Positions 10,662-55,002 are shown, counted from the stretch's first letter. The stretch is 64,000 nt of DNA from Oscillospiraceae bacterium (GCA_024404815.1 JAKSPL010000006.1:7414-71413); one strand, 5' to 3'. A program made the numbers and translations. Notes: a model not told the origin generated them from the letters alone.

Positions 10662-12830
10662 TTATTGTTTATTGTAGGTAACCCATTCATACTGCGCGGT
10701 CAGCGGAGTGTTGCCGTTGAACGCATTGAGCCACTCGTCAACGCCTTTTCCGGGCCAGACATTCATCATGATCTTGCCGGCGGTTCTCGGGATGCTCTGT
10801 GTTGCGCGGTAGACTTCCTTGCCGTCTACATACCATGCGATGTAACCGGGCTGCCAGTCGAAACCGTAGCGGTGGAAGCCCTGTGAAGCATCAAAGCCGA
10901 GATTGTACATATACTCGTGTTTGCCCTGACCGTTGGTGTAGTAGTTGAACTGTACCTTTGTGGTGTCTTTGCCGAGAACTTCGACGTCGATCTCATCCCA
11001 CGGGTTGCCGTCGGATTCGCCTGTGTAGGTGAAGAACGAGGAAACGACACCGTCATTCTTGATCGCCTTCATAGAGGTTTCGTAGTAGCCGTAGCTGTAA
11101 AAATCGTTGGTGCGGTATTCTGCTGCGGAGTACGCATATTTGCCGCTGTAATCTCTGTCGATTTTGAGGGTGAGAACACCGTTGTCGAGAGAAGTATTGT
11201 TCTTATACCAGCCGCAGTTGAACGGATCGCCGTTCGTCCAGCCGTCAGATGCGATGAAGTATCTGCTCGAACCGTCGCGGAAATCCTCGACCATCGTAGC
11301 ATTCTTGTTCATGTAATCCGTAGAGGTCTGACCGCCCTGATTATTGTCGCCCTGATTCCAGTTCCAGCCGCCCTGGTTCCAGTCGCCTTGATTCCAGCCC
11401 TGGTTGTTATTGCCCTGCTGCTGACCGCTCGGAGAAGCATTGTTATAGGTGACCCACTGATAGCGAGCGGTGAGCGGAGTCTTGCCGTTGAACGCATTCA
11501 GCCATTCGTCAACGCCTTTGCCGGGCCATACGTTCATCATGATCTTGCCTGCGGTTTTCGGAATGTTTTGTGTTGCGCGGTAGACTTCCTTACCATCTAC
11601 ATACCATGCGATGTAGTTCGGCTGCCAGTCGAAGCCGTAGGTGTGGAAGCCCTGTGAAGCATCAAAGCCGAGATTGTACATATACTCGTGTTTGCCCTGA
11701 CCGTTGGTGTAGTAGTTGAACTGTACCTTTGTGGTGTCTTTGCCGAGAACTTCGATGTCGATCTCATCCCACGGGTTGCCGTCGGATTCGCCTGTGTAGG
11801 TGAAGAACGAAGAAACAACGCCGTCATTCTTGATCGCCTGCATGGAAGTTTCGTAGTAGCCGTAGCTGTAGAAATCGTTGGTGCGGTATTCTGCTGCGGA
11901 GTACGCATACTTTCCGCTGTAATCTTTGTCGATGGTCAGTGACAGATGCTGGTCATTCAGCGAGGTGTTGTTTTTATACCAGCCGCAGTTGAACGGATCG
12001 CCGTTTGTCCAGCCGTCAGAAGCGATGAAATACTGGCTGGAACCGTCACGGAAATCTTCATACATCTTTGCGGAGGTGTTCGGCGCGGTACCATAATCCT
12101 TGATGGAACCCTGATTCTGGTTGCCCTGATTCGGATCCCCACCCTGATTGTTGTTGCCCTGCTGGCTGCTCTTTTCGTAGGTGACCCACTGATAGCGAGC
12201 GGTGAGCGGAGTCTTGCCGTTGAACGCATTGAGCCATTCGTCAACGCCTGTGCCGGGCCATACGTTCATCATGATCTTGCCGGGCGTTTTCGGAATGTTT
12301 TGTGTTGCGCGGTAAACTTCCTTGCCGTCTATATACCATGCGATGTAGTTCGGCTGCCAGTCAAAGCCGTAGGTGTGGTATGCTTCGGAAGCATCGAAGC
12401 CGAGATTGTACATATACTCGTGTTTGCCCTGACCGTTGGTGTAGTAGTTGAACTGTACCTTTGTGGTGTCTTTGCCGAGAACTTCGATGTCGATCTCATC
12501 CCACGGGTTGCCGTCGGATTCGCCTGTATAGGTGAAGAACGAGGAAACAACACCATCGTTCTTGATCGCCTGCATGGAAGTTTCGTAGTAGCCGTAGCTG
12601 TAGAAATCATTGGTGCGGTATTCCGCTGCGGAGTACGCATATTTGCCGCTGTAATCTTTGTCGATGGTCAGCGACAGATGCTGGTCATTCAGCGAGGTGT
12701 TGTTCTTATACCAGCCGCAGTTGAACGGATTGCCGTTTGTCCAGCCGTCAGATGCGATGAAATACTGGCTGGAACCGTCACGGAAGTCCTCGAACATCGT
12801 TGCATTGGAATGCGGAGCCGTACCGAGGTC
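10662..12830 (-). repeat. Tandem triplication of a ~730-770-bp GH16-coding unit
   Basis: gccgagaacttcga(c/t)gtcgatctc occurs at 10971, 11742 and 12474 (offsets 771 and 732). Long stretches are nearly identical between units. Confidence 0.9.
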
Positions 12831-13109
12831 TTTGATGCCCGAACCGGATGATGACGGATTGAGGATGCCTCTTTTGAGAAGCGTCAGGTCAACAGCATTG
12901 ACCTTTCCGTCATTGTTCATATCCATATTGCCGCTGAGGTTTCTGGATTGTCCTGTGAGATAGCTGACAAGTGCCTTTGCATCCTGTGCATTGACCTGTC
13001 CGTCATTGTTGGCGTCGCCCTGTGCAGCTGCAAAGGCGGTCCATGTGACGGAACCTGCTGCCATCATGCCGCAAAGCGACAATGCGATAAGTTTCCGTTT
13101 GCGATTCAT
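10662..13109 (-). CDS. Cellulosomal enzyme: signal peptide, N-terminal dockerin, three tandem GH16 lichenase-type catalytic domains
   Basis: ATG at 13109 (MNRKRKL) preceded by AGGGAGGA. Three copies of [28 protein letters not shown]. Listed ORF start 13202 rejected because it lacks an RBS. Confidence 0.9.
12861..13019 (-). other. N-terminal dockerin module
   Basis: [21 protein letters not shown] ... [21 protein letters not shown] directly after the signal peptide. Confidence 0.85.
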
Positions 13110-13226
13110 AATAAATCCTCCCTTTTCATAAGTGCACACGAAATATGCAGACTGACTTATGCTACCATCAGTATGCCATATGAAACGGGAAAATTCTATC
13201 AAAATAATCGCGAAAATAGCAATCTC

Positions 13227-14362: not shown

Positions 14363-14398
14363 AGAGATGCAATGAAATTGCAGGAGGGGGTAATTTCT

Positions 14399-16045
14399 AT
14401 GAAATTGAAAAAGGCAATGGTATTTGCTGCGGTACTCTGTATGCTGTCTGCACCGCTGACAGCAGCAAATTTCCCTGTACTGTCGGCAGCATCCGTTACA
14501 GCATCCGCAGCAGACCCTGTTTATGAGGGTGTCAAGTATACGGTCGTGGATGACCATGTTGAGATTACAGGCTGTACTGTCAAAGAGGGTACGCTGGAAA
14601 TTCCTGCCGAAATCGACGGCAAACCTGTCACTATGATTGGTGCAGCAGCGTTTTTCGGTGAGAAATTCGACAGCGTTGTGATTCCTGACAGCGTGACCGA
14701 GATCGGCGGCGGCGCATTTTGGAAGTGCGTCAATCTGACAAAAGTCAGCATCCCGTCCAGCGTTGTATCACTCGGAAACCACGCATTTGCGGATTGCAAA
14801 GCACTTGAAGAAATTGAAATTCCGGAAAAATTGACGGATATTCATGAGCTTGCGTTTGAAGGAAGTGCATGGCTGACTGCGAAACGTGCTGAGAATCCGT
14901 TCGTTGTTGTCAACGGTATCTGCATTGATGCCGCACAGGCACTGGACAATATTCTTGCAGAGCAGCAGGCGGCAGAAGAGGAACGCCAGAAAGCACTCGA
15001 TGACAAGAATATCGTACTGATCTATGTCAATGAGGATGAATCGGACGAGAAAGGGGTCGAAATCGACTTTCCTGAGGGGATCACCGCGATCGGTGAAACG
15101 GTTTTTGCGGATCTGAGACGTTCGATCAATGTGACGAAAATCGTGATTCCTGAGGGTGTGACGAATATCTATGCGAATGCGTTCTCGCTTTGCCATGAAT
15201 GTACAGAGGTTCAGCTTCCGAGCACGCTGGAAGAAGTCGGCGACAGCGCATTTGCCGATATGAAGTGGCTGGAACAGCAGCCGAAAGAGAACGGTCTGTT
15301 TATCATCAACGGTCTGCTGATCGACGGCAAAAATGCCGTGGGCGATATTGAAATTCCCGAGGGCGTGACCGCGATCTGCGGCAATGCGTTCCGCGGAAAT
15401 GCAGATATTACTTCTGTGACATTCCCAAGCAGTTTGACGATCATCCGTGATTTTGCATTCAAACGCTGCGCGAATCTGAAAACGGTAAACTTTGCAGAGG
15501 GCATTCAGACCATCGGTGAAGAAGCGTTTTCGGACTGTGGACTGACATCTCTGGTTCTGCCTGAAAGCCTGAAAGAACTGGAATACCGTGCGTTCATCAC
15601 CTGCAACAGTCTGCCGAAGGTATCTGTCCGCAATGATGATATGATTATCGGCGCAGAGTCTTTGGGCTATAAGAACACATTCCTGCCGACAGGTCAGTAT
15701 ATGTCTGTTTACGTACTTTCCGTGCGAAATGATTTCATCATCGAATGCCGCGAGGGTTCGACTGCGGAAGCCTATGCAAAGGCAAACGAACAGGTCGTTC
15801 AGCTGGGTGAAGCAGGCGATGCAAACGGCGACCTGACTGTTGATATTACCGATGTCATTCTGCTTTCCCGTTTTGCGGCAGAGGACAAGTCTGCACCGCA
15901 GATGACGGAAGCAGCGAAAAAACTTTGCGATATGAACAATGACGGCAAGACCAATGCCGAGGATGTATCGCTGATTCTCCGCAAAATTGCCCGCTTGGAC
16001 GAAGAAACAGAAGATGTTCCTGTTGAAGAAGCATCTGCTGAATGA
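14399..16045 (+). CDS. Secreted BspA-type leucine-rich-repeat protein with C-terminal dockerin
   Basis: ATG at 14399 (MKLKKAMVFAAVL) after GCAGGAGGGGG. LRR_5-type repeats (IPD.VT.IG..AF..C..L). C-terminal dockerin. Confidence 0.85.
   Translation: MKLKKAMVFAAVLCMLSAPLTAANFPVLSAASVTASAADPVYEGVKYTVVDDHVEITGCTVKEGTLEIPAEIDGKPVTMIGAAAFFGEKFDSVVIPDSVTEIGGGAFWKCVNLTKVSIPSSVVSLGNHAFADCKALEEIEIPEKLTDIHELAFEGSAWLTAKRAENPFVVVNGICIDAAQALDNILAEQQAAEEERQKALDDKNIVLIYVNEDESDEKGVEIDFPEGITAIGETVFADLRRSINVTKIVIPEGVTNIYANAFSLCHECTEVQLPSTLEEVGDSAFADMKWLEQQPKENGLFIINGLLIDGKNAVGDIEIPEGVTAICGNAFRGNADITSVTFPSSLTIIRDFAFKRCANLKTVNFAEGIQTIGEEAFSDCGLTSLVLPESLKELEYRAFITCNSLPKVSVRNDDMIIGAESLGYKNTFLPTGQYMSVYVLSVRNDFIIECREGSTAEAYAKANEQVVQLGEAGDANGDLTVDITDVILLSRFAAEDKSAPQMTEAAKKLCDMNNDGKTNAEDVSLILRKIARLDEETEDVPVEEASAE
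15815..15995 (+). other. Dockerin module
   Basis: GDANGDLTVDITDVILLSRF ... DMNNDGKTNAEDVSLILRKIA. Confidence 0.85.
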
Positions 16046-18726: not shown

Positions 18727-19239
18727 ATGCTTGAAAAACTGCTGCAATTTGTATTAAAACTGATGCCGAAGCCGATCAAAAACCTATTTTATAAATATGA
18801 AAGCATCTGGCGGTACTGCTACTACGGCGCGTGGACAACGGTCGTATCCTTCGCGTCATTCCTGCTGGCAAAATTTGCATTGCAGGCAATGGGCTTCTCG
18901 CTGAAGAATTTCATCCCCCTTGCGATTGCGAATGTATTTTCGTGGATCTGCGCGGTCGTGTTTGCGTTTGTTGTCAATAAGAAGTACGTATTCATGAGCA
19001 AAACCGACACCAAAAAGGAACTGCTCTATGAACTTGGTACCTTTACGGGGGCGCGTGTGGCGTCGCTGGGCATCGAAGCAGGATTCATGGCGATCACGGT
19101 CAACCTGCTGCATTGGAACGATGTTCTGATGAAAATTATCGCACAGGTCGTTGTGCTGATCATCAACTATGTGTTCAGCAAACTCGTGATCTTCAAAAAG
19201 GCACGCGAGAATAAGGACAGCGAGAAACAGGCAGAGTGA
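18727..19239 (+). CDS. GtrA family membrane protein
   Basis: 170 aa with four helices, FAFVVNKKYVF and INYVFSKLVIFKK motifs. AAGGAGA RBS. Confidence 0.85.
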   Translation: MLEKLLQFVLKLMPKPIKNLFYKYESIWRYCYYGAWTTVVSFASFLLAKFALQAMGFSLKNFIPLAIANVFSWICAVVFAFVVNKKYVFMSKTDTKKELLYELGTFTGARVASLGIEAGFMAITVNLLHWNDVLMKIIAQVVVLIINYVFSKLVIFKKARENKDSEKQAE

Positions 19240-19257
19240 TTCTTATTAAAAACAGAA

Positions 19258-19298
19258 ACGCTTCATCCGATAAAGAATCGGGTGAAGCGTTTTTTTTG
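19258..19298 (+). terminator. Intrinsic terminator
   Basis: acgcttcatccgat / atcgggtgaagcgt stem followed by tttttttt. Confidence 0.85.
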
Positions 19299-19322
19299 CA
19301 GGTTATCGGTATTTCAAAGGTA

Positions 19323-21965
19323 CTACACATCCTTCATATGGAGCGTTGCGATCGTCAGCAGCGTCCAGAGAACGTGGTAGATGAGCATGATGCCGCCTGT
19401 GACGTAGTCATATGCGTGGAGCAGCAGGAAAATAATGACACAGAGGATGCCAAGGCAGGCAGAAACGACCTGCATGATCGCGCCAAGCATTGCGGTGGAA
19501 TAGATGCGTTTCGCACCGACGATCGTCTGGATGAATCCTGGGAGTCTGCCTGCGCAGACCATAGAGGGATTTGCAGTTTCAAGCGGTTTGGTTTCTGCGA
19601 CATAATCCTGTTCCATGCGTGTCGGAATGATTTTCAGCAGTTCCTCTGGGAATCCGAACATTCTCGACAGCCGCCGCTGAGAGAGCAATGCATCATTGCT
19701 GCGGACAAGCAGATGAATATCTTCGCGTTCCAGCTCGTGCAGCCATTTCTTGACGCTTCTGCTTGCGGTCAGACTGACGATAAACATAGCAGAGATCGTG
19801 CCCGAAACGGAGAGGTAGATCGCCTCAAAACTGCCGCCTGTCAGTTCATCCTCCTTGTGTGGTGCAGGGAGTCCTTCAATGCTGTGCTCGACCATCATTT
19901 CGCGCTTGCCGAGCAGGACACGTTTGTTGTGGATCCAGCCGCTGATACCACTTCCCTCGTCATATGCGTAATCTTCAACAGGGAGCAGCATTTGTTCCTC
20001 GGCGAGAATCGCACCGGAAAAAATATCTTTGAGAATACTGCCTGCGTGCTGTGTGAGACTTGCGGCGTACTGCAAAGCTTCTTCAATGCGGCTTTCGCCG
20101 ACGATCTGAATGGATTCGAGTTTTGTGGAACTCTGCGGAAACAGCGTCGCCGCATCCACCATGACCGTATTGACATCGTAGAAATCGTCAACACTCTGGT
20201 AGCCGAGCAGCAGACCGCTTCCGCGGACATACTGTTTTGTACCGAGTGCCATCGGGAGATTGGAAACAAGGGTGATACCTGCACAAGCCGCTGCGGCAAC
20301 GCAGAGAGCAAAGACAGCCAGACCATAGCAGATAGGATTTGCAACAGAGTCTGCACGGAGAATTGCAAGAAAAACGGAGAATATCAGCGAAATTGCCAGG
20401 ATGATCGGAACGGCAATCTTGCAGATATGGTCACCAAGATCGGAGGAGAATGTATACCGCAGGAAATCCGTGATCTGATTGGACGGCTGCATGGTCGCCA
20501 GAATCGGCAGATCACCGAGTGTGCCGCGTGTCAGATTTTCTGCACGTTTTTCGTCCTCGACGTAATGAATCGCATATTTCGGTTCATCGCCTGACAGGAT
20601 CTCGAAATTCCGCTGGGCACGCGAAACGATCATCTTTTTGGAGATGGCGTTCATCCAGACGGCAAGCAGACCGACTGCAATGTAAACAGAAGCGATGCCG
20701 TTTTGCAGGAGTTTCGGGAAAATCAGCATCGACAGCGCAGAAACCTCTGCGGTGGTGATGGCACAGGCGGCGAGGGAATCGCAGTCTGCCTTAAAGGAAA
20801 TCAGTTTTTTCAAACCGCTGCGGAGCAAATCGCCCGAAACGGGAACAGCGAGCAGACCAAGCAGAATCTGAATCAGCAGATAGCTGCGCGGAGATTCTGC
20901 GGAGGAAAGGAAATTCGGCATGGGAATCGCGGGGATCCAGTCGAGCAGCGTCAGCAGACAGCTGATGATAGTGACGATTCCGACCAGCACCACGCGCAGC
21001 GACAATGTCATTTTCAGTTCGTCAATGTCGCGGCGGATAGAGATTTTGTCCTCAGGGTGCTTGAAATCCTTTGCCTGTTTGGGGAGATCGGAGCGTTTGC
21101 GCCGTTCCTCATGGTAGTGAACGTCAATGTCAATGCCCTCCGATTCCGCAGGGGCAAGATTGATCTGTGTATATTCCGCTTTCTCTATGAGGTCTGTGGG
21201 TGCGGATACTTCCTCATAGGGCTGTTCCATGAACTGTTCGGGGATGCGGTCATCCTGCGGCACATTATTTTTGAGCTTCTTGCGTTTTTGGGGTGCCGCT
21301 GTTGGCTGTAAATGCTGTTCGGGGGATTCCTTTTCGTAGGGCAACGCCTCAGCATTGCGGTGGTGGCGTTTGCGGAGTTCTTTTGCGCGTGTCGAATCGC
21401 TCATGCGGCGGATTTTGGGCTGATAATCAGATTCCTGTGCAGGCTGTTCGGATTCCGAACGAACCGCATGGTCATATGCCTGTTCGGTGGTCGCCCCGGT
21501 CCATCTGGCACGCGATGCGGGTTCCAGATTCGCGATCGCATTCATAAAGGAAACCTGCGGCTTTTGAATATCGGCAGGTGTTACGGTGCGGACGGGTTCT
21601 GGTTTGCGAAGCGGTTCGCCTTTTTTGCGCTTTTTGACAGGATTGCCGTAGGGGTCGGTTTTGAGCGGTCTGCCGTTCTTTCCGACCTTTTCTTTTTTCT
21701 CCTGTTTCTTTTTATTGTGATGCGGTTTATCATTTTGAGGTGCCGATTCTGCTTCCTCGCTGACGGTTTGTGGCTGTTCTGCTTCCGTTTTGGTTTCCGT
21801 TGTGTCTTCGGAAGCTGCTTGCTCGGTTGTCTGCGGTTCGGCAGGCTGCTGTTCTTCGACAGGCTTTTGCGTCTCGGACGGCTGTGCAGCCGTGTCCGTC
21901 TGCGCCTGTTCGTTCAGCGGTTGCTCGTTCGGCTTCTCAATGGATTCACGTCGTTTGAATACCAT
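19323..21965 (-). CDS. P1B-type-ATPase-like membrane protein with degenerate catalytic motifs and long disordered N-terminus
   Basis: About 330 aa K/E/P/Q-rich N-terminus, then hydrophobic helices and a cytoplasmic loop colinear with heavy-metal ATPases (EEALQYAASLTQHAGS, GWIHNKRVLLGKREMM). VDAATLF replaces DKTGTLT, RSND replaces TGDN, CAGRLP replaces GDGxND. Confidence 0.75.
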   Translation of the reverse strand: MVFKRRESIEKPNEQPLNEQAQTDTAAQPSETQKPVEEQQPAEPQTTEQAASEDTTETKTEAEQPQTVSEEAESAPQNDKPHHNKKKQEKKEKVGKNGRPLKTDPYGNPVKKRKKGEPLRKPEPVRTVTPADIQKPQVSFMNAIANLEPASRARWTGATTEQAYDHAVRSESEQPAQESDYQPKIRRMSDSTRAKELRKRHHRNAEALPYEKESPEQHLQPTAAPQKRKKLKNNVPQDDRIPEQFMEQPYEEVSAPTDLIEKAEYTQINLAPAESEGIDIDVHYHEERRKRSDLPKQAKDFKHPEDKISIRRDIDELKMTLSLRVVLVGIVTIISCLLTLLDWIPAIPMPNFLSSAESPRSYLLIQILLGLLAVPVSGDLLRSGLKKLISFKADCDSLAACAITTAEVSALSMLIFPKLLQNGIASVYIAVGLLAVWMNAISKKMIVSRAQRNFEILSGDEPKYAIHYVEDEKRAENLTRGTLGDLPILATMQPSNQITDFLRYTFSSDLGDHICKIAVPIILAISLIFSVFLAILRADSVANPICYGLAVFALCVAAAACAGITLVSNLPMALGTKQYVRGSGLLLGYQSVDDFYDVNTVMVDAATLFPQSSTKLESIQIVGESRIEEALQYAASLTQHAGSILKDIFSGAILAEEQMLLPVEDYAYDEGSGISGWIHNKRVLLGKREMMVEHSIEGLPAPHKEDELTGGSFEAIYLSVSGTISAMFIVSLTASRSVKKWLHELEREDIHLLVRSNDALLSQRRLSRMFGFPEELLKIIPTRMEQDYVAETKPLETANPSMVCAGRLPGFIQTIVGAKRIYSTAMLGAIMQVVSACLGILCVIIFLLLHAYDYVTGGIMLIYHVLWTLLTIATLHMKDV

Positions 21966-22051
21966 TTGATGCGGCGATACTCCGTGCTGCGATTCGGAGA
22001 TGCCTGCTGCTCCTCTCTCGTTGATTATTCAGGATGCCTGTAAATTTTTGA

Positions 22052-22786
22052 TTATAGGGAATCGGTGCGCTGACGGACGACCTCATAGAGCAGGATACCT
22101 GCTGCAACGGAGGCGTTCAGCGAATTGATTTTTCCGAACATCGGAAGGCTGAGGATGCCGTCGCATTGTGCGCGGACAGGCGCACTCAGCCCGAAACCTT
22201 CGGAGCCGATGACGATACCGACTGCTCCGGTCATATCGGTTTTTGTCGCAGGCTGACCATCCATATCTGCGCCGAAAAACCAGATGCCGCGTTTTTTGAG
22301 GGCGATCATCTCGGTTGCGAGATTGCCGACACGGGCAACGGGGATCCAGCTGGCTGCGCCTGCGGAAGTTTTATAAACGGTTTGTGTGAGGGATGCGCTG
22401 CGGCGCTTTGGCAAAATGACACCGTCTGCACCTGCGGCTTCTGCGGTACGAAGGATCGCGCCGAGGTTATGGGGGTCTTCGATCCCGTCGCAGAGAATCA
22501 GAAACGGTGCGGTGCCTTTTTTCTCGCTGACGGCAAGAATATCCGCGACAGTCGCGTATTCTGCACACGCGCCCTCTGCGCAGACACCCTGATGATTGCC
22601 GCCGTCACACATGGCATCCAGCTTGCGGTTGTCGGTTGTTTTGACGACGATGCCGCGTTTTTTCGCCTCTTTGCAGATCGCACCGAGGCTGCCAGTCATC
22701 GACGTTACGAAAATATGGTCAATGGGTGTGTCGGCTTTGAGTGCCTCCATCACCGAGTTTCTTCCATAAATAATTTGTTCGTCCAT
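22052..22786 (-). CDS. rlmB: 23S rRNA (guanosine-2'-O)-methyltransferase, TrmH/SpoU family
   Basis: IIYGRNSVMEAL N-terminal domain, SpoU motifs LILCDGIEDPHNLGAILRTAEA, IVIGSEGFGL, INSLNASVAAGILLYE. ATG at 22786 after GGAGA. Confidence 0.9.
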   Translation of the reverse strand: MDEQIIYGRNSVMEALKADTPIDHIFVTSMTGSLGAICKEAKKRGIVVKTTDNRKLDAMCDGGNHQGVCAEGACAEYATVADILAVSEKKGTAPFLILCDGIEDPHNLGAILRTAEAAGADGVILPKRRSASLTQTVYKTSAGAASWIPVARVGNLATEMIALKKRGIWFFGADMDGQPATKTDMTGAVGIVIGSEGFGLSAPVRAQCDGILSLPMFGKINSLNASVAAGILLYEVVRQRTDSL

Positions 22787-22895
22787 GTGAATCTCCATTC
22801 GCATTCTGACAATTTATTCCCATTCCATTTTATTATACCATAACTCTGCGAAAAAGACAAGACGAAACAACAGGAATTTTTTCATTCCGAATTGG

Positions 22896-23159
22896 CTATT
22901 TTAACCAGAAGGCCATGAGCGCGGCACCGCACGCACCACTGGCGGCAACCACGAATATGCGCATCAGCAATCGTTTTCCGATTTGCAGCGGCTTTCTTGG
23001 AGAAAGTTCCGAGAGGAGCTTCTGCGTTTCCGTTCGGACGGCATTGCGGTCTTTTCGGCTGAGATTCGGTTTGAGATAGAGGACAACGCGTTCAAAATAA
23101 TCGCTGTTGGGATTTGCAAGTTCGATGACGGTTTTGCTGACACCGCGAAAAGTGGTCAT
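22896..23159 (-). CDS. Hypothetical small protein with C-terminal TM helix
   Basis: 87-aa ORF with hydrophobic C-terminus IFVVAASGACGAALMAFWL; no family recognised. Confidence 0.45.
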   Translation of the reverse strand: MTTFRGVSKTVIELANPNSDYFERVVLYLKPNLSRKDRNAVRTETQKLLSELSPRKPLQIGKRLLMRIFVVAASGACGAALMAFWLK

Positions 23160-23218: not shown

Positions 23219-23253
23219 CAAAAAAAGCCGCCGACAGGGGGATCCTGTCGGCG
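23219..23253 (-). terminator. Intrinsic terminator after hom
   Basis: gccgacagg / cctgtcggc stem; minus-strand reading followed by ggcttttttt. Confidence 0.75.
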
Positions 23254-25040: not shown

Positions 25041-25165
25041 TTGCAACGGAAGCACATCTCCTTTCTCCAAAACTTTCCACGTTAGGCGGACATCTGTGCG
25101 TTTGATGAAATCATTATAGCATATTTCAGAATGTTTGTCAAGCCTTTTGGTCTGCGGAATTGCAG

Positions 25166-48582: not shown

Positions 48583-51500
48583 ATGCACAACAGACATTAT
48601 CGAAAGGCTTTGGCGTTTCTGACCTCGCTGGTTCTGGTCGGGACGGCAATGCCGGAAAGTATCGTGACAGAAGTCAGATCCTCTGCACGCACGAAAAATC
48701 TCTCTCTTGCAGACTTTTCGGCGGAGATCAAGGCGATGGAACCGACTTCTGACAGCAGCGGACGATTTGAAAAACTTCGGTTTGACGCTGCGGAGAAAAA
48801 GCTGTATCAGGATGAGCAGGAAGTGACAGGTTCCTGCGGCGGTTTTGTCGTGAAAAACGGCAGTCTGTGCGTAAAAGCATCCTATGCGGCAACTGCAAAG
48901 GAACAAGCAGAGGTTGCTTCTGATGCGACAATTTCCTTGGAGGAAGCACGCAGTAAGATCGGCTGTGAGGTGCTGGAGAAAGCGGACGGCAGTATGGAGA
49001 TCATCTCTCCGTTCCAGCTTGCCCGTCTGATTGTCAAATCGGAAAATGCGGTTGACAGTCTGAATGCAGTTTCGACTGTTGAGGACTATCGGAATCTTCA
49101 TGTTCTGCAATTTGAAACACCTGCCGATGCGTATACGGCATATCAGCATTATCAGAAGCTGGACAATATTGAGTTTGTCACGCCTGACCGTGTGGTACAT
49201 ACCTGTATAAACGCTTCGACACCGTCCTATGCGAAAGAACTCTGCTGGGGCAATCAGGCGATCGGCTCCAAAGAATTCTGCGAGCGTCTGACATCTGAAC
49301 ATGAGGAACTGCCCGACATTAAAGTCGCTGTCATTGATACAGGCTATTATGCAGACCATGAACTGCTTCGTGACAGAATAGCTGACGGGGCGAAGAGCTT
49401 TATCTATAAAGACAGAGAATTTCCGATTGATGTATTCGGACACGGTACGCATTGTGCAGGCATTATCGCTGCTTCTACGGCAGATAATGTCAGCATTCTG
49501 CCGATTTCTGTATTAGGTGACGACGGCTATGGCGATACATTGGAGATCTATTGCGGAATGATGTACGCCGCAGAACAGAATGCGGATGTTGTCAGCATGA
49601 GTCTGAGCGGTTATGGTGAAGAACCGCTGGAAGATGAGGCGGCAAAAGTATTGGCTGAATGCGGTACTGTGCTTTGTGCTGCTGCTTCGAATGATGACGG
49701 TGACGATGCAAGAAACTATGCGCCCGCAAACTGTCCCGGTGCGATTACGGTTTCTGCAATAGATTCAGACTATGAGCTGGCGTATTTCTCGAATATCGGC
49801 GAGATCGTGGATATTGCCGCACCCGGCGTGGATATTTTGAGTGCAGGTAATCAGTATCCCACGGAGTATGTGTCGATGGACGGTACCAGTATGGCGACAC
49901 CGTATGTTGCAGCTTGCTGTGCGGATATTCTCTCTGCGCAGCCCGATTTGTCCGTTGATGAACTGAAAGCACTGCTGTTTGCCAATGCTGTGGATCTCGG
50001 CGAAGAAGGCCGCGATGAGAAATACGGTTACGGTATGGTGTGCCTGAAAGATTTCGATTTCCATATTCTGGACTGTGCCGCACCGAATGCGACATTAGAA
50101 TCAGGCAGCTACGAAGAAGCACAGTCCACTCTGTTGGAATGTGACACCGAGGGCGCAGTGATTTACTATACGACAGACGGTACTGCACCCGACAAGGAGA
50201 ACGGCATTCTTTATCAGAATAAGGCAATCAAAATCGGGCAGTCCATGACGCTGCGTGCTGTTGCAATGCTGGACGGCAAATACAGTTCAGAACGCAGTTT
50301 TGTCTATGAGATCGCTAGGAAAGATACTGCGAATGCGCTGGAGATCAAAGACGGTGTTCTGACGGCATATCACGGCTGCATGATTGATCTGAATTTGTCC
50401 GATGAGAAAATCACGGAAATCGGCGAGGGAGCATTTGCAGGCAATGATACGCTTGAAACCGTCATTCTTCCGAGTTCATTGAAAAAAATCGGCGCACGCG
50501 CATTTGCGGATTGTGACGCGCTTTGTTCTGTGGAAGGAAAATGTGCAGAAACGATTGGCGATGAAGCATTTCGCAGTTGTGATGTTTTGTATAACTTCCG
50601 CCTGAATACGGATGTTAAGGAACTGGGCGAAGCCTGCTTTATGGAATGTCCGTCGCTGAATGAATGTATCGGACTGGAATCCCTGACTGAATTGCCTGCG
50701 TATACGTTCTGCGGTGATGAACAGCTTTCTGTTCAGCTTCCGAATCTGACGGTCATTGGTGACTATGCATTCAAAAACTCCATTCTGGAATCGGAAACGC
50801 TGTGTTGGGAGAAACTGACCAAAATCGGCGCACACGCAATGGAGAATTCGTCTATCCAAAATTCTGTGCTTTCGCTTCCGAATGTCACAGAATTTGGCGA
50901 ATATGCGCTGGCTTCTTCATATGCTGAACAATATGAATTTTCAGAAAAACTGACAGCACTTCCTGAGGGATTGCTGATGAATTGTACGCTGATGACGAAG
51001 CTTTCCGCGCCGAATGTGACAAAAATCGGTGCATATGCGCTTGCACTGTATCCGGATGCTGCATACCGCTTCCCGATCATCGGTTTTGAGAATCCGCTGG
51101 AATGGGATATTGACTGCACAAAGGTCACAGAGGTTGGTGCGGCGGCGTTTGCAGGTCTTTGGATCGATCAGGATCTGTCCTTTGATTCGCTGACATCTGA
51201 TGCGGCGGATAGTTTTGCAGGATTCATGGTGTCACAGCTGAATCTTCCTTCTGTGAAACGGATTCGTTCGAACAGCGAACAGCTCAATTCGACGTTTGGA
51301 CTGTATTTCTTTGCAAATGTGCTGTGTATGGAAAATCTGGAAGAAGTATACAGCGATGATATCGGCTATGCGACGGCACTTGTATGCGGCGATAAGGTCA
51401 AGAAATTCTCGCTGTCCGAACAGAATCCTATGTTAGAGGAGATCATGCTGGCGGCACCGAAAGACAGCCTTGTTGAAACCTATGCAAAGAATCACGGATA

Positions 51501-54500
51501 TTCTTTCTATGTATCTCCGTTTATGAAGCTGTGGTATCCGACAGAAGATGTCATCTGTTATGATGAGATTTCTCTTGAGGCTGACCTGCTGGGCTTTGGT
51601 CTGACAGGTAAATGGTATGTATACAAGAACGGTGAACTGGACTTCACCAGTACCCAGAGTGTTGTATCATGGGTCCCGACAGAACCCTGCGAATATGCGG
51701 TCCATTATGAGATGCTGAAAGACGGCGAAATGCTGGATGAAGCATCGTTCGGATTCAATGTAGTGGACGATGGCTGTTCCTATGACATTACGTATGATAA
51801 GCAGATGATCGTCAAGCGTCCGGAGAAGAAGATTGAATATTTTGAGGACGGTACATCGTATTCTTATTATCCGACTTTGAATTTGGTATACAAGCCGACA
51901 GAATCTTCCTACCAGCAGGTGCGGTATTCTGCGGGTTCTATGTTCATTTCCGATGTGGATGGCACACAGGCGAGTGATTATAGTGAGAAAGGCTGTATAT
52001 GGTATACATTTGAAGCAGGAAAAACCTATGTCCTGCGTCTGGACTGCTATGATGCGTATAGTGTTGTTCTGATTACCGATGAAGATGCAGAATTCAAAGA
52101 TTTCTCCGAGAACGGCTTTGCATCGTTTGAGTCTTTGGAGATGTATGAGGATGAACTTCCGCCTGCTGCGGAACCGATTGTGAAATACTATGTGCCGAAC
52201 GAAGAGGACGATTATGATTCGGCTTGGGTGACACTGGACGAAGAATCCTATGAGATGATTCCTGAACCGTTCAAGGATCATTACAATTATCTGTACTATT
52301 ATTTTGTTGGCAAGGGCGAATATTTCGGCATGGTCGGTGCCTGCTGCACCGTATTGCAGACGATAGAAGCGGAAAAACCCGTGACAACATCCAACATGAG
52401 AGAAACATACACATTTGTTCCGGAAAAGGACGGTGAGTATGTGTTCATGAGTGCGCCGTCAGATGCTGCGATTGCAGACTGCAAGCGTGATGCGGTGATG
52501 CCGAACTTCGATCTCAGTTTGATCGTGCAACCCTCTGACTATGAAAACTATGAAACTGTTCTGGAAGATTACGGAATAGACCTGTATTGGACGAACGGAC
52601 AGCTTTGCGACAGTATGTATCTGCAAGCAGGTGTGGAATATTGGTTCAATGTCGTAAACTACACCGGACCGGACGAGCCGATCGTCCCGATCGTCCCGAT
52701 GACCTATCTGCTGACACAGAAAAAGCAATCTCTGTATACCTGTAATGTGATGGAGCCGACCTATGATATGGTGGACGGCAAACTGGAGAATTTCAATATT
52801 GCAGTTCTTACGGCAGACGAGGAAGAAACACCGCTGACAGAGGGCGAAGACTTCACCTGTGAATACTGGTACGACTATGCTGAATCGCCGAGCTGTCTGT
52901 TCTACTGCGTAAAGGGTATCGGCGACTACTATGGTACGATTCTGAAAGGCATTTCGCTGCTGAATGGCACGATGCTTTCTGACGGAAAGATCCCGATCGA
53001 ACTGAACAAGCCGTTCGTGGTCAACAAGAACAGAAATCTGTTTTCTCTGACGATGGAGGAAGGCTCAAAGATCAGTCTGGAAGTGCTGGAAGGTACATTC
53101 AGCGACGGATTGGCACCGACCGTATCCTTTGTAGAGATAGATGAGTACTATATTGCTTCTTATGGGATGCTCAATGCCGAAAATCCGACTGTGACTTTGG
53201 ATATGTATAGTATTGACGTTCTGGTCAATGTCAGAACACTGGAAGACGACAACTGTGTGCTGATGCTGAAAAGCGAAGAATGCAAACCTTGGTATGAACT
53301 TTCGGTCGCTTATACTGAACGCTTAGACTATACCGGAGAAGTGTGTGTACCGGAGGATGTGGTGATCACCACAGAGGACGGCGATGTACTGGAAGAAGGC
53401 GTGGATTATATTCTTCGGTTTGAAGATACGGTCGAGTGCGGATGGTATCAGTTTGAGGTTGAATATATCAAAGACTATTTTGGAACGACAAATTGTGAAT
53501 ATTTCATTATGAATGAGATCCATACAGAAAACGCACAGGAACTGAAACTCGGTGAAAATACAGCAGTCATTGAAACTCCGGGTGAATTTGCAGTATACCA
53601 TATTGATGGCGATATAGAATCCTATATATTATCCAAAGAGATTCTTGATCCGGTGGTTATGTATATTTATAACAAAGAAACAGACTTCTTGTCGCGTGTC
53701 TGCGATGGTATGATTGGCGAATACAGTACAATGCTTTATAAGGATGAAGGGGATGAATATCTGCTGGTCGGCTTTGAGGGCAATTTCCGAACCGGTGAGA
53801 TTCCGTTCCAATTTAATCAGGGTATCAATGAGCTTTGGAACTGTACTTACGAGTGCCCTGAAACCGTCATGTACACAGGCGAGGATGTCCGTCCTGACAT
53901 TCAGATTTATGACGGCGAGAAGCTGCTGCAGGAGGGTACTGACTACGAATTGCAAATGGACTGCAACTCGACAGGTGTCGGCTATGCGTCCTATACGTTT
54001 GTCGGAAAGGGCGGCTATTCCGGTGAGATAGATGTTCCGACCGCGATTTATTATCCGAATGTACAGGATTATTTCGGTGCTGCGGATACAGAGAACATAG
54101 ATGAACTTTGTACGGCGGTAGATGTCGGGATGGCTGTGAACTTCTGTCCGCAGACGATTAACGGATATGCAGTATACTGTCTGTCAAATAATTCCGAAAC
54201 ACCGCTGGAACTGCGTATGATGTATTCCGATGCAGGATCTTCTACGGAGGACTGGACAGAATGGGCAGGTATCTGCAATACGGAGGAAGAATACGATTCT
54301 GATAATTTTGAAGTGCCCGATCCGTTTTATTATATGCACGTTCTCGGTTTTGTATATGATTCGGACGGAAACTTTGTGGAACTGAGCGGAAATTATCAGA
54401 AGCTGACGATTGCACCGAATGACTGTGTGTATGTAGCAGTTGTTGCATCTCCGGCATACACCGATATCACCAATCTGGACATTACGTTCCATGACATTGC

Positions 54501-55002
54501 AGAGCATGATCCGTTGGATGATGTCGTGTCATATTATACGCTGGATGGCGTAACTTATATGCTGTGCGAAGGTTATGAAGCATATGTGGTATCGTTTGAT
54601 GAAGACCGTCGGGCAGTGGTTCTGCATGACTGGATCGAAGTGAACGGCAAAACGTACTATCTGTCCGGTTTCAGCGTAGATGATAAACAGCTTGCGTATG
54701 CAGAGGATCAGATCCTATTCTACTTGGAGGACAATGGAACCATGTGGTCTGGAAGCCAAGCCCTCGCAGACAAATACGGCTGGCATACCGCATCGCTGGA
54801 TTGGTGTTCTGTGGTCAAAGGCGACTGGAATGTGAACGGCGAACTGGATGTAATGGATGCAGGGTCGCTGAACCTTTCGATCGCAGAGGGCAATGGTGTT
54901 GTGATGACACCGCAGATGGAAGAAACGGATATGAACGATGACGGTATTGTCAATGTTCTCGACGTTTTGATGATCTTGCAGCAAGCACAGACTCAGGCAT
55001 AA
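48583..55002 (+). CDS. Giant (2139 aa) cellulosomal subtilisin-family (S8) protease with Fn3-associated, BspA-LRR, repeated Ig-like/PPC-like modules and C-terminal dockerin
   Basis: AGGAGG RBS and signal peptide. I9-like propeptide (HVLQFETPADAYTAYQ). S8 triad D252 (VAVIDTGY), H287 (HGTHCAG), S436 (GTSMATP). LRR_5 repeats at about aa 590-900. Dockerin at the C-terminus. Confidence 0.9.
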   Translation: MHNRHYRKALAFLTSLVLVGTAMPESIVTEVRSSARTKNLSLADFSAEIKAMEPTSDSSGRFEKLRFDAAEKKLYQDEQEVTGSCGGFVVKNGSLCVKASYAATAKEQAEVASDATISLEEARSKIGCEVLEKADGSMEIISPFQLARLIVKSENAVDSLNAVSTVEDYRNLHVLQFETPADAYTAYQHYQKLDNIEFVTPDRVVHTCINASTPSYAKELCWGNQAIGSKEFCERLTSEHEELPDIKVAVIDTGYYADHELLRDRIADGAKSFIYKDREFPIDVFGHGTHCAGIIAASTADNVSILPISVLGDDGYGDTLEIYCGMMYAAEQNADVVSMSLSGYGEEPLEDEAAKVLAECGTVLCAAASNDDGDDARNYAPANCPGAITVSAIDSDYELAYFSNIGEIVDIAAPGVDILSAGNQYPTEYVSMDGTSMATPYVAACCADILSAQPDLSVDELKALLFANAVDLGEEGRDEKYGYGMVCLKDFDFHILDCAAPNATLESGSYEEAQSTLLECDTEGAVIYYTTDGTAPDKENGILYQNKAIKIGQSMTLRAVAMLDGKYSSERSFVYEIARKDTANALEIKDGVLTAYHGCMIDLNLSDEKITEIGEGAFAGNDTLETVILPSSLKKIGARAFADCDALCSVEGKCAETIGDEAFRSCDVLYNFRLNTDVKELGEACFMECPSLNECIGLESLTELPAYTFCGDEQLSVQLPNLTVIGDYAFKNSILESETLCWEKLTKIGAHAMENSSIQNSVLSLPNVTEFGEYALASSYAEQYEFSEKLTALPEGLLMNCTLMTKLSAPNVTKIGAYALALYPDAAYRFPIIGFENPLEWDIDCTKVTEVGAAAFAGLWIDQDLSFDSLTSDAADSFAGFMVSQLNLPSVKRIRSNSEQLNSTFGLYFFANVLCMENLEEVYSDDIGYATALVCGDKVKKFSLSEQNPMLEEIMLAAPKDSLVETYAKNHGYSFYVSPFMKLWYPTEDVICYDEISLEADLLGFGLTGKWYVYKNGELDFTSTQSVVSWVPTEPCEYAVHYEMLKDGEMLDEASFGFNVVDDGCSYDITYDKQMIVKRPEKKIEYFEDGTSYSYYPTLNLVYKPTESSYQQVRYSAGSMFISDVDGTQASDYSEKGCIWYTFEAGKTYVLRLDCYDAYSVVLITDEDAEFKDFSENGFASFESLEMYEDELPPAAEPIVKYYVPNEEDDYDSAWVTLDEESYEMIPEPFKDHYNYLYYYFVGKGEYFGMVGACCTVLQTIEAEKPVTTSNMRETYTFVPEKDGEYVFMSAPSDAAIADCKRDAVMPNFDLSLIVQPSDYENYETVLEDYGIDLYWTNGQLCDSMYLQAGVEYWFNVVNYTGPDEPIVPIVPMTYLLTQKKQSLYTCNVMEPTYDMVDGKLENFNIAVLTADEEETPLTEGEDFTCEYWYDYAESPSCLFYCVKGIGDYYGTILKGISLLNGTMLSDGKIPIELNKPFVVNKNRNLFSLTMEEGSKISLEVLEGTFSDGLAPTVSFVEIDEYYIASYGMLNAENPTVTLDMYSIDVLVNVRTLEDDNCVLMLKSEECKPWYELSVAYTERLDYTGEVCVPEDVVITTEDGDVLEEGVDYILRFEDTVECGWYQFEVEYIKDYFGTTNCEYFIMNEIHTENAQELKLGENTAVIETPGEFAVYHIDGDIESYILSKEILDPVVMYIYNKETDFLSRVCDGMIGEYSTMLYKDEGDEYLLVGFEGNFRTGEIPFQFNQGINELWNCTYECPETVMYTGEDVRPDIQIYDGEKLLQEGTDYELQMDCNSTGVGYASYTFVGKGGYSGEIDVPTAIYYPNVQDYFGAADTENIDELCTAVDVGMAVNFCPQTINGYAVYCLSNNSETPLELRMMYSDAGSSTEDWTEWAGICNTEEEYDSDNFEVPDPFYYMHVLGFVYDSDGNFVELSGNYQKLTIAPNDCVYVAVVASPAYTDITNLDITFHDIAEHDPLDDVVSYYTLDGVTYMLCEGYEAYVVSFDEDRRAVVLHDWIEVNGKTYYLSGFSVDDKQLAYAEDQILFYLEDNGTMWSGSQALADKYGWHTASLDWCSVVKGDWNVNGELDVMDAGSLNLSIAEGNGVVMTPQMEETDMNDDGIVNVLDVLMILQQAQTQA
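54820..54990 (+). other. Dockerin module
   Basis: GDWNVNGELDVMDAGSLNLSI ... DMNDDGIVNVLDVLMILQQ. Confidence 0.8.

Follow-up and report, generated by a model that had tools for sequence, protein, structure and literature searches.

A pseudo-P1B-ATPase with a long disordered tail, encoded beside rlmB in Oscillospirales

Introduction

Few membrane machines are understood as well as the P-type ATPases, whose signature motifs are regarded as universal. Here we describe a gene, referred to as X, on the minus strand of a 64,000-nucleotide stretch of DNA (the window) from an Oscillospiraceae bacterium (GCA_024404815.1, JAKSPL010000006.1:7414-71413). An original prediction, made from the sequence alone, had described its product as a membrane protein with the scaffold of a P1B-type ATPase and none of the catalytic motifs, preceded by a disordered N-terminus. 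X is a pseudoenzyme: it combines homology to an enzyme with lost catalytic residues and purifying selection. Nucleotide coordinates below are window positions, and residue numbers are those of X unless stated otherwise.

Results

An intact gene for an 880-residue protein

The list of open reading frames (ORFs) confirmed that X is intact, with 880 codons (Table 1), and all peptides quoted in the original prediction were recovered in place in its translation. The start, MVFKRRESIEK..., is common to the closest relatives; a weak GGAG lies 14 nt 5' of the ATG. The terminator that follows X folds as RNA with -20.7 kcal/mol (z = -5.5), a stability equalled by 0 of 200 shuffles, and we take it to be bidirectional, serving also a convergent GtrA-like gene, because an A-run lies upstream of the stem. 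Three ORFs on the opposite strand (19236-20594, 452 aa; 20703-21311, 202 aa; 21312-22043, 243 aa; all +) were dismissed as shadow ORFs of X. The extreme AT skew at 21000-22000 (-0.35 to -0.52) results from the K, E and Q codons of the tail, which are A-rich on the coding strand.

Table 1. Features of X and of the DNA around it, with window positions.
Feature	Position	Strand	Basis or remark
Complete coding sequence of X (pseudo-P1B-ATPase)	19323..21965	-	880 aa; ORF list, start kept in close relatives
Intrinsic terminator 3' of X	19248..19292	-	15-bp stem with one mismatch, loop, U-tract
M5-M6, residues 808-880	19326..19544	-	helices 808-848 and 857-879, pLDDT >90
Second half of P domain, residues 734-807: R-S756-N-D758 (19692-19700), P781-x-[RK]783, S801-M-V-C804-A-G806-R	19545..19766	-	alignment, model
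N-domain homologue, residues 613-733	19767..20129	-	most conserved module; alignment to LpCopA N domain
First half of P domain, residues 582-612: L-G-Y-Q-S-V-D-D-F-Y-D-x-N-T-V-M-V-D604-A-A-T-L-F-P	20130..20222	-	D604 codon 20154-20156
M3-M4, residues 510-581: CPC-equivalent A559-A560-C561 (20283-20291), then N569-x-P571	20223..20438	-	register against LpCopA 'IACPCA'
Actuator remnant, residues 458-509 (52 aa): Y-V-E-D-E-x-R-A-E-x-L-T-R-G-T-x-G-D-F/L-P-I-L-A	20439..20594	-	column counts, model
Helices MA, MB, amphipathic MB' (G384 kink), M1 (A-D394-C-D396-S) and M2, residues 316-457	20595..21020	-	DSSP helices, column counts
Disordered cytoplasmic tail, residues 1-300	21066..21965	-	pLDDT mostly <50
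Short linear motif Y-Q-PKIRRMSDSTRAKE, residues 181-196, predicted helix	21378..21425	-	conserved columns
rlmB (23S rRNA Gm2251 2'-O-methyltransferase)	22052..22804	-	directly upstream of X, 86-bp gap; TIGR00186, Pfam SpoU_methylase and SpoU_sub_bind
Candidate sigma-70-like promoter before rlmB, TTGTCT-17-TATAAT with TG	22832..22860	-	consensus scan, 10/12 matches
Small 87-aa protein with C-terminal transmembrane segment, upstream of rlmB	22896..23159	-	alignment of 7 lineages
Terminator after hom (homoserine dehydrogenase), 10-bp GC-rich	23229-23253	-	strong terminator
Perfect sigma-70 consensus promoter upstream of ACT-domain gene, TTGACA-17-TATAAT with TG	25113-25141	-	consensus scan
GH16 enzyme, three GH16 stretches, type I dockerin	10662-13202	-	domain search
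BspA-type leucine-rich repeat (LRR) protein, type I dockerin	14372-16045	+	domain search

X shares the fold of P1B-type ATPases

The C-terminal ~570 residues of X are genuinely homologous to P1B-type ATPases. A phmmer search against all PDB sequences found one significant family, Legionella CopA (LpCopA, 3RFU), with E=2.2e-14 over residues 510-783, and a family profile built from 76 sequences reached LpCopA with E=2.4e-15. In NCBIfam CopA/TIGR01525 alone matched, at about 1e-11 and far under the curated cut-offs (42.4 bits against TIGR01525 with a cut-off of 346, and 44.5 bits against PRK10671 with a cut-off of 1316). Pfam gave no E1-E2_ATPase, Hydrolase or HMA match to X at E<=10, and nothing usable for seven long-tailed and five distant members; matches to DUF6594 and DUF2951 were set aside because they were sub-threshold and fell within low-complexity or transmembrane (TM) regions. 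Searches of the PDB by sequence with residues 756-880 and 316-510 returned no P-type match, and a match to kallikrein ('SMLCAGYLPG' against 'SMVCAGRLPG', E=0.05) was discarded as coincidence. A canonical DKTGT ATPase was also sought in the examined DNA for a profile-profile alignment, and none was found there.

An AlphaFold2 (AF2) model of X, built on 76 homologues, had a predicted local distance difference test score (pLDDT) above 90 for about residues 300-880 and contained eight TM helices. The modelled order is MA (to 343), MB (359-376), platform helix MB' (378-389), M1, M2, a small insert, M3, M4, the P and N domains, M5 and M6, with M4 broken at 559-563; the MA/MB pair and the platform are peculiar to P1B pumps. 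In the region 316-457 the DSSP helices span 304-343, 359-376, 378-389, 395-415 and 429-457, all at pLDDT >90. A second AF2 model, of the 40%-identical member P0083, gave the same picture. When the PDB was searched with Foldseek, the top 14 hits were all P1B ATPases (LpCopA at E=5e-19, followed by ATP7B, ZntA, CadA and HMA4, to 6e-11), a second tier held KdpB (E 1e-10), and P2 and P3 pumps came after it. X has the P1B fold and its eight-helix topology (MA, MB and M1-M6, with P, N and A domains), the A domain being merely a stump of 52 aa. The predicted colinearity of the C-terminus with heavy-metal P-type ATPases is thus borne out by phmmer, the family profile, NCBIfam and Foldseek alike.

The residues of the phospho-enzyme cycle are absent or unconstrained

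Motifs were placed in register by HMMER alignment to LpCopA, and alignment columns were counted in 120 close members and in 151 diverse members (149 for some positions). Around the phosphorylation site, 'VNTVMVDAATLF' of X aligned with 'VNTLVVDKTGTL' of LpCopA. VMVDAATLF had been predicted to stand in for DKTGTLT; the K, T, G and T are indeed all replaced (D604-A-A-T-L), but the Asp is still there, in register, as D604. In the close clade position 604 reads D100/N12/S7/E1 (n=120), and across the family Asp accounts for 78 of 149 representatives (52%), with 13 residue types in total (the others being S, E, N, T, R, G, H, K, P, A, Q and Y). Non-Asp residues at this position are spread over 49 separate groups among the 149 representatives. 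The following L608-F609-P610 is nearly invariant. A catalytic Asp in another register had been named as an outcome that would speak against the prediction; the Asp of X is in register, yet it is unconserved across the family, and catalysis is not rescued by it. DKTGT or GDGxND was present in none of the about 390 members inspected.

In the second half of the P domain, RSND was correctly read in the place of TGDN, but the motif is not wholly lost: 'LLVRSNDA' of X aligned to 'VMLTGDS' of LpCopA, so that S756 and D758 match the T and D of TGD. Position 756 is Ser/Thr-like in the family (T74/S61), D758 is found in 148/149, and two of the four TGD(N) positions are therefore kept. A possible HAD motif III, P781-x-[RK]783, is basic in 86/151 and lies one residue off the canonical register. 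CAGRLP had been placed at GDGxND; the conserved Asp is indeed absent, but the register here (strand 802-804, then the helix) was set solely by position and by secondary-structure prediction, as sequence searches align nothing there. The GDGxND-equivalent positions 805 and 809 have no conserved Asp (805 is D in 16/151). In the AF2 model the helix into M5 already begins at 808, which means that the last beta-alpha-beta unit of a canonical P domain is missing. Of the motifs that a competent HAD phosphotransferase carries, the motif I Asp is thus unconserved, the motif II S/T is kept, motif III is possibly represented by R/K783, and the acidic pair of motif IV is absent.

The actuator region had been estimated at about 80 aa; it is shorter, 52 aa (residues 458-509), and lacks the TGE Glu, as predicted. 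Position 482, the TGE equivalent, is T, L, A or V, and a conserved Glu was never seen there. Where TGE would stand, the loop reads L-T-R-G-T-x-G-D. The stump is modelled as two strands and two short helices.

Within the membrane, HMMER register confirmed that the CPC metal site reads AAC (A559-A560-C561). C561 is present in 118/120 of the close clade, whereas family-wide the same column is P77/C30. The M4 columns of the wide family read C/S/A/G/T at 559, S/A/T/C at the next position and P/C/S/G at 561, which does not amount to a CPx/xPC metal site. Near-invariant residues follow the CPC position (N569 in 121/151 and P571 in 140/151). In M5-M6, G828, Q832, Y863 and N/Q/H864 are conserved, and the MxxSS and NY metal ligands are absent. 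The N-terminal HMA (CxxC) metal-binding domain, which many but not all P1B pumps have, is absent too: Pfam gave no HMA match at E<=10 and the tail contains no Cys. A metal sensor at the level of the family was considered and rejected, since the cysteines C515, C561 and C804 of the close clade are unconserved in the wide family.

The claim that every catalytic motif is lost is therefore too broad as worded, because D604, S756, D758 and the N-domain glycines are kept; it stands for KTGT, the TGE Glu, the GDGxND Asp, CPC, the SEHPL His and HMA. For phosphoryl transfer, P-type and HAD enzymes depend on the nucleophile Asp, on the Lys of DKTGT and on Mg2+ bound by the motif IV aspartates; dephosphorylation in P-type ATPases depends on the TGE Glu of a mobile A domain. 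As these residues are absent or unconstrained, we regard a phospho-enzyme (Post-Albers) cycle as excluded for the family.

The N domain is the most conserved module

The pocket residues of the N domain, as listed for ATP7B and CopA, were used to read the corresponding region of X. Its key residues are A634-A-S636, S643, G671-x-G673-x-x-G676-W677, K681-R682, G686, R688, M691, H694 and P700. In the HMMER register G671, G673 and G676 align with GxGxxG, and G686 with the Gly of the GN dyad. G673 and G686 are present in 149/149, W677 in 148/151, R682 in 147/151, H694 in 145/151 and P700 in 150/151; position 687 is N in 96/151, but K in X. The SEHPL equivalent is A-G-S643-I-L, in which the His is replaced, and position 643 is S118/G26 in the family.

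Taking as conserved any column with 85% identity or more in the diverse set, we found A634, A635, S636, F649, L660, V663, E669, G673, W677, R682, G686, R688, M691, H694, P700, E705, Y717, G722 and F728 in the N domain, and G588, N599, L608-F609-P610, D758, P781 and G806 on the adjoining face of the P domain. The A-stump and its linker contribute R449, N453, F454, G481, F501 and D509, and the membrane part G384, D396, N439, G442, K443, P520 and P571. The skeleton of the adenine pocket is thus kept, the ligands for catalytic metal and phosphate are gone, and aromatic and basic residues have been newly gained and are invariant, a pattern that would be expected of a module that binds a ligand and does not hydrolyse it.

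All regions of X are under purifying selection

The ratio of nonsynonymous to synonymous substitution rates (dN/dS) was measured against a 91%-identical orthologue at a synonymous divergence (dS) of 0.75. X as a whole gave 0.062 and its core 0.034. By region, dN/dS was 0.026 in the P and N domains, 0.02-0.07 in the TM segments and 0.008 in the A-stump, which is the most constrained part. The tail is also constrained, less so than the core (0.125 for the whole tail and 0.065 for its motif-rich block 128-215), and no region gave more than 0.17. More distant pairs gave agreeing ratios, though their dS is saturated.

An intact long ORF (700-950 aa) was present in 81/84 species-level loci, the shortest ORFs being truncations at contig ends. 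Decaying orthologues, which would have spoken for a pseudogene, were not encountered; intact loci and low dN/dS were found instead. The original proposal of a repurposed, non-pumping fold in a functional gene is therefore borne out by the freedom of position 604, by purifying selection and by the intact orthologues.

The disordered N-terminal tail contains conserved motifs

Over its first ~300 residues X is rich in K (10.5%), E (13%), P (9.8%) and Q (8.6%), has no Cys and shows pLDDT mostly <50, much as predicted, but this stretch is not featureless, since conserved blocks lie inside it. The tail of X is acidic and Q/T/P-rich over residues 1-80 and has a basic cluster at 85-118 (21612-21713). 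In the family the N-termini measure 100-1,073 aa (median 300); E, K, D, S and P are abundant in them, hydrophobic residues are scarce, and they are net acidic.

At about residues 6-16, 287 of 386 members (74%) carry an N-terminal tag, M-x4-6-[FY]S[LVI][DE]DIL-x-E[YI] (for example at L003:8016 and L087:7013, where L numbers denote loci in the examined DNA), and 25 of the 26 occurrences of the tag pattern in that DNA are N-termini of X genes. We know of no described motif that corresponds to [FY]S[LVI][DE]DILxE[YI]. In the P0083 model the tag forms a helix at pLDDT about 57 without docking confidently on the core, which is compatible with binding of a partner in trans. The subclade of X has replaced the tag with a basic start (MSSKRRKSKK...) or a remnant (MVFKRRESIEK).

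The X clade has tail motifs of its own. In Y-x-PKIRRMSDSTRAKE, R186, M188, S191, R193 and A194 are invariant in 76 sequences, and the IRRM...AKE block is modelled as a helix (pLDDT about 71 in X and 70-84 in P0083). Further conserved blocks of this clade are GKNGRPLKTD, VSFxNxxA and YDxAV. Hidden Markov models of these motifs matched at most 12 of 275 distant members (11/275 for Y-x-PKIRRMSDSTRAKE), and the motifs are thus clade-specific.

A database protein, P0001, is 100% identical to X over the C-terminal 550 aa and differs from it in the tail at H82Y (21720-21722) and Q226P (21288-21290). These two differences fit a faster evolution of the tail.

X belongs to a large family whose named members are Oscillospirales

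With a word-indexed search we obtained 294 relatives that are 790-916 aa long and at least 38% identical; each is labelled 'hypothetical' and lacks a precomputed Pfam domain. A profile run exhaustively against 1.84 billion representatives brought the family to no fewer than 1,310 clusters (50% identity, E<=1e-30). Inspection covered the best 150 of them: all scored >400 bits, and their lengths of 386-1,638 aa differ because of the variable tail. The named members were all Oscillospirales (Ruminococcus, Oscillospiraceae/Ruminococcaceae, Anaerotruncus rubiinfantis and Acutalibacter). When GTDB species genomes were scanned from a motif seed, X turned up in 283 of them, a set biased toward the Ruminococcus clade because the seed came from the close alignment; it includes the cultured R. 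flavefaciens strains 007c, ATCC 19208, ND2009 and YL228.

Public labels are inconsistent. P0246 (MBE6885613.1), P0274 (MBQ8732733.1), P0281 and P0111 are called 'cation-translocating P-type ATPase' or 'Cu+-exporting ATPase' despite lacking DKTGT, TGE and GDGxND, and most other members are called 'hypothetical protein'. PADLOC models gave no match for three members, and the neighbours of X are housekeeping genes; neither a model match nor a defence-island context thus marks X as part of an anti-phage defence system. A role specific to sporulation was held unlikely, as R. flavefaciens carries X and is, to our knowledge, not known to sporulate.

X is linked to rlmB

The gene directly upstream of X is rlmB, identified as a TIGR00186 equivalog with 241 bits against a cut-off of 160. 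It occupied this place, on the same strand, at 75 of 84 loci, and the remaining nine lie at a contig edge without upstream DNA, so that all 75 informative loci agree. The linkage extends to members only about 25% identical (in Anaerotruncus, an Acutalibacter-like genome and three others), with gaps of 3-100 bp. In the window no terminator-like site was seen between rlmB and X. The promoter before rlmB is a candidate only, as the consensus scan overall showed no enrichment against shuffles. The ACT promoter and the hom terminator bound an ACT-hom operon and thereby set it apart; together with the promoter-like site at 22860-22832, the hom terminator suggests that rlmB and X form one transcription unit.

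Upstream of rlmB lies the gene for the small protein of Table 1. Seven lineages share the motif M-x2-[KR]GV-x-K-x-VIE...YFE[RK]..L[YF][LV][KR]; the protein has 76-89 aa and usually precedes rlmB, even where X is about 25% identical (L087:5769-6032, L090:5810-6067, L091:5844-6113 and L085:4822-5085), with tblastn matches in 13 and 10 loci. No family was assigned to it by Pfam or NCBIfam. From its recurrent position, it may be the third member of a cluster of small protein, rlmB and X.

Just downstream of X, several distant lineages carry a paralogue of elongation factor G (EF-G) with GTP_EFTU, EFG_III, EFG_IV and EFG_C domains (L003:10643-12730, L087:9989-12064, L090:9576-11642, also L052 and L091), which is not in the window. 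With rlmB upstream and the EF-G paralogue downstream, X is flanked in these lineages by two ribosome-related genes. OGG lies divergently upstream in distant lineages. In a divergent clade of 715-aa proteins (P0246/P0274, L089:4623-9441) X is not beside rlmB; it directly follows rodA/ftsW (SEDS), with mreB divergent upstream and DUF4321 downstream.

Elsewhere in the window, the dockerins on the GH16 and LRR proteins mark the organism as a cellulosome producer resembling Ruminococcus. An ORF of 2,139 aa lies at 48583-55002 (+).

Discussion

What might a pump scaffold without a catalytic cycle do? We propose that the pump body would act as a static membrane anchor joined to a conformational or ligand-sensing module, and not as a transporter. 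Its N-P cleft would bind a nucleotide or a similar anionic ligand without hydrolysis, as a pseudokinase does, a proposal made because this cleft is the most conserved part (GxG, G686 and D758 are kept; W677, R682, R688 and H694 are gained). The module would position or regulate a disordered cytoplasmic tail of 100-1000 residues, whose motifs (the N-terminal tag, and in the X clade IRRMSDSTRAKE and basic clusters) would recruit soluble partners to the membrane. As a package, an anchor that senses through its N-P cleft and A-stump and holds the tail out to soluble partners seems to us moderately probable.

Some observations weigh against this package. The SEHPL His is lost (S643), and nucleotide binding is deduced from the retained glycines alone; X itself lacks the N-terminal tag; and the tail motifs are clade-specific, so that the notion of one partner may be wrong. 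Polar membrane residues (N439, N569, Q832, Y863 and N/Q864) together with the break in M4 mean that the TM domain could still bind or conduct, and a passive permease, channel or ion-sensing TM module that works without ATP, with the cytoplasmic part as gate or regulator, would make use of them. M4 is still unwound at the CPC equivalent, about half of the wide family keeps C-[SA]-P, N569 and P571 are near-invariant, N439, Q832, Y863 and N/Q864 are conserved where P1B pumps bind metal, and the TM segments share in the low dN/dS. However, the M4 ligand columns 559 and 561 are variable, the canonical M5/M6 ligands are absent, and conservation is strongest outside the membrane, in the N domain and the A-stump. 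The occluded ion path of a P-type pump opens solely through movements of its A domain, of which X would be incapable. We therefore think a permease or channel unlikely. P1B topology places almost all non-membrane mass in the cytoplasm, and the evidence, short of proof, makes a scaffold or ligand sensor that faces the cytoplasm more likely than a channel. Far less room is left for a divergent active pump with non-canonical motifs (D604 as nucleophile, S756/D758, R/K783). In register, X does carry D604, the Ser of motif II, the Asp of TGD and, close to motif III, a basic residue, and the PGAP label 'cation-translocating P-type ATPase' is attached to some members. Yet 48% of representatives have a residue other than Asp at position 604, with R, K, G, P and H among the substitutes; the Mg Asp pair of motif IV and the DKTGT Lys are absent; the dephosphorylation machinery is missing, given a 52-aa A stump without the TGE Glu; and the score of 42 against 346 bits is far under the curated cut-off. 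Continued pumping is, on balance, highly improbable. We give practically no credence to a decaying pseudogene or an annotation artefact such as a two-gene fusion: the lost catalytic motifs, the low-complexity N-terminus and the want of a Pfam family might hint at decay, but dN/dS is low in all regions, 81/84 ORFs are intact, the AF2 fold is confident, and the architecture of tail plus core is kept in at least 1,310 clusters.

As to partners, the linked genes hint weakly at ribosome or translation factors (rlmB and the EF-G paralogue) and, for a single clade, at the machinery of cell-wall elongation. Taken further, X could be a pump-derived, nucleotide-sensing anchor whose tail tethers or regulates RlmB, the EF-G paralogue, ribosomes or assembly intermediates at the membrane; one clade would then have rewired the same scaffold to the RodA/MreB elongasome. 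This extension is speculative, and we rate its chances as low; the gene order with rlmB may reflect no more than co-expression of unrelated housekeeping genes. It is similarly doubtful that X serves throughout as a scaffold of the cell-envelope, division or elongation machinery with the SEDS/MreB system as its partner. The divergent 715-aa clade, which follows rodA/ftsW beside mreB and before DUF4321, would speak for it; long, disordered, motif-bearing cytoplasmic tails are typical of adaptors of the divisome and elongasome, and envelope genes are scattered nearby elsewhere (VanY, GH25/LysM, PASTA kinase, SpoIIE). These scattered neighbours are unconserved, however, and may be there by chance, and the elongasome context belongs to one clade only, whereas nine other lineages inspected for context and 75/75 informative loci link X to rlmB.

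Whatever its partners, a large family from abundant gut and rumen Oscillospirales does without phospho-enzyme chemistry while its fold, N-domain pocket and A-stump are strongly selected. It is a natural experiment on the pump scaffold without pumping and adds a membrane-protein case to the pseudoenzyme field. It also exposes a systematic annotation problem, with members called 'hypothetical' or, wrongly, 'cation-translocating P-type ATPase', and it defines an operon that is conserved but uncharacterised (the small membrane protein with rlmB and X) and a new N-terminal peptide tag. If the link to ribosomes were true, a dead P-type ATPase would provide a previously unknown, Oscillospirales-wide connection of the membrane to ribosome biogenesis or translation.

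Comparison with known systems

A search of the full-text literature, the coverage of which is incomplete, found no description of a bacterial pseudo-P-type-ATPase family, and none is named in a recent review on the diversity of P-type ATPases (PMC10654040). X departs from nearly all the sequence features that define P1B pumps, has their fold and topology, and partly retains TGD and the N-domain pocket. The closest match in both sequence and structure is CopA (LpCopA 3RFU/4BBJ; ATP7A/B), with which X shares eight helices, MA/MB, the kinked platform, the unwound M4 and an N domain inserted into the P domain, keeping the GxGxxG and G(N) glycines and the TGD Asp. Unlike CopA, X has no HMA domain, no tail Cys, no TGE and no GDGxND; CPC is AAC, the SEHPL His is Ser and DKTGT is D-A-A-T-L. 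X has also gained the invariant W677, R682, R688, H694 and L-F-P, and scores about 12% of the curated cut-off. A canonical CopA A domain has about 115 aa, against 52 aa in X. KdpB, the P1A subunit of KdpFABC, appears in the second Foldseek tier and is also a P-type scaffold that serves within a larger assembly and not as a stand-alone ion pump; it is, however, catalytically complete (DKTGT, TGES, GDGxND) and encoded with kdpA and kdpC, neither of which is true of X.

Tails are also known from canonical pumps, in the N- and C-terminal extensions of Pma1 and the autoinhibitory tails of P1B pumps that are linked to metal-binding domains (PMC11970713). These resemble the X tail in being long, flexible cytoplasmic termini with short conserved segments, some of which reach pLDDT 70-84 in the X family; there the tail regulates catalysis, whereas X has no catalysis to regulate, a much longer tail and a family-specific tag. 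Conceptually, the closest analogue on record is the P4-ATPase-like module of the guanylate cyclases of alveolates and stramenopiles (P4GC; Plasmodium GC-beta, Cryptosporidium), in which DKTGT and (L)DGET are degenerate and which is still needed; this module is thought to be regulatory or sensing, not pumping, and is the best documented such case (PMC13466520). P4GC is eukaryotic, of P4 origin, fused to a cyclase and degenerate in only some lineages, whereas X is bacterial, of P1B origin and degenerate across the whole family, with a disordered tail as its sole appendage. In a wider sense X resembles the pseudoenzymes, such as the pseudokinases and pseudophosphatases (reviewed in PMC10211241), in which catalytic residues are replaced while the fold and part of the ligand pocket are kept under purifying selection.

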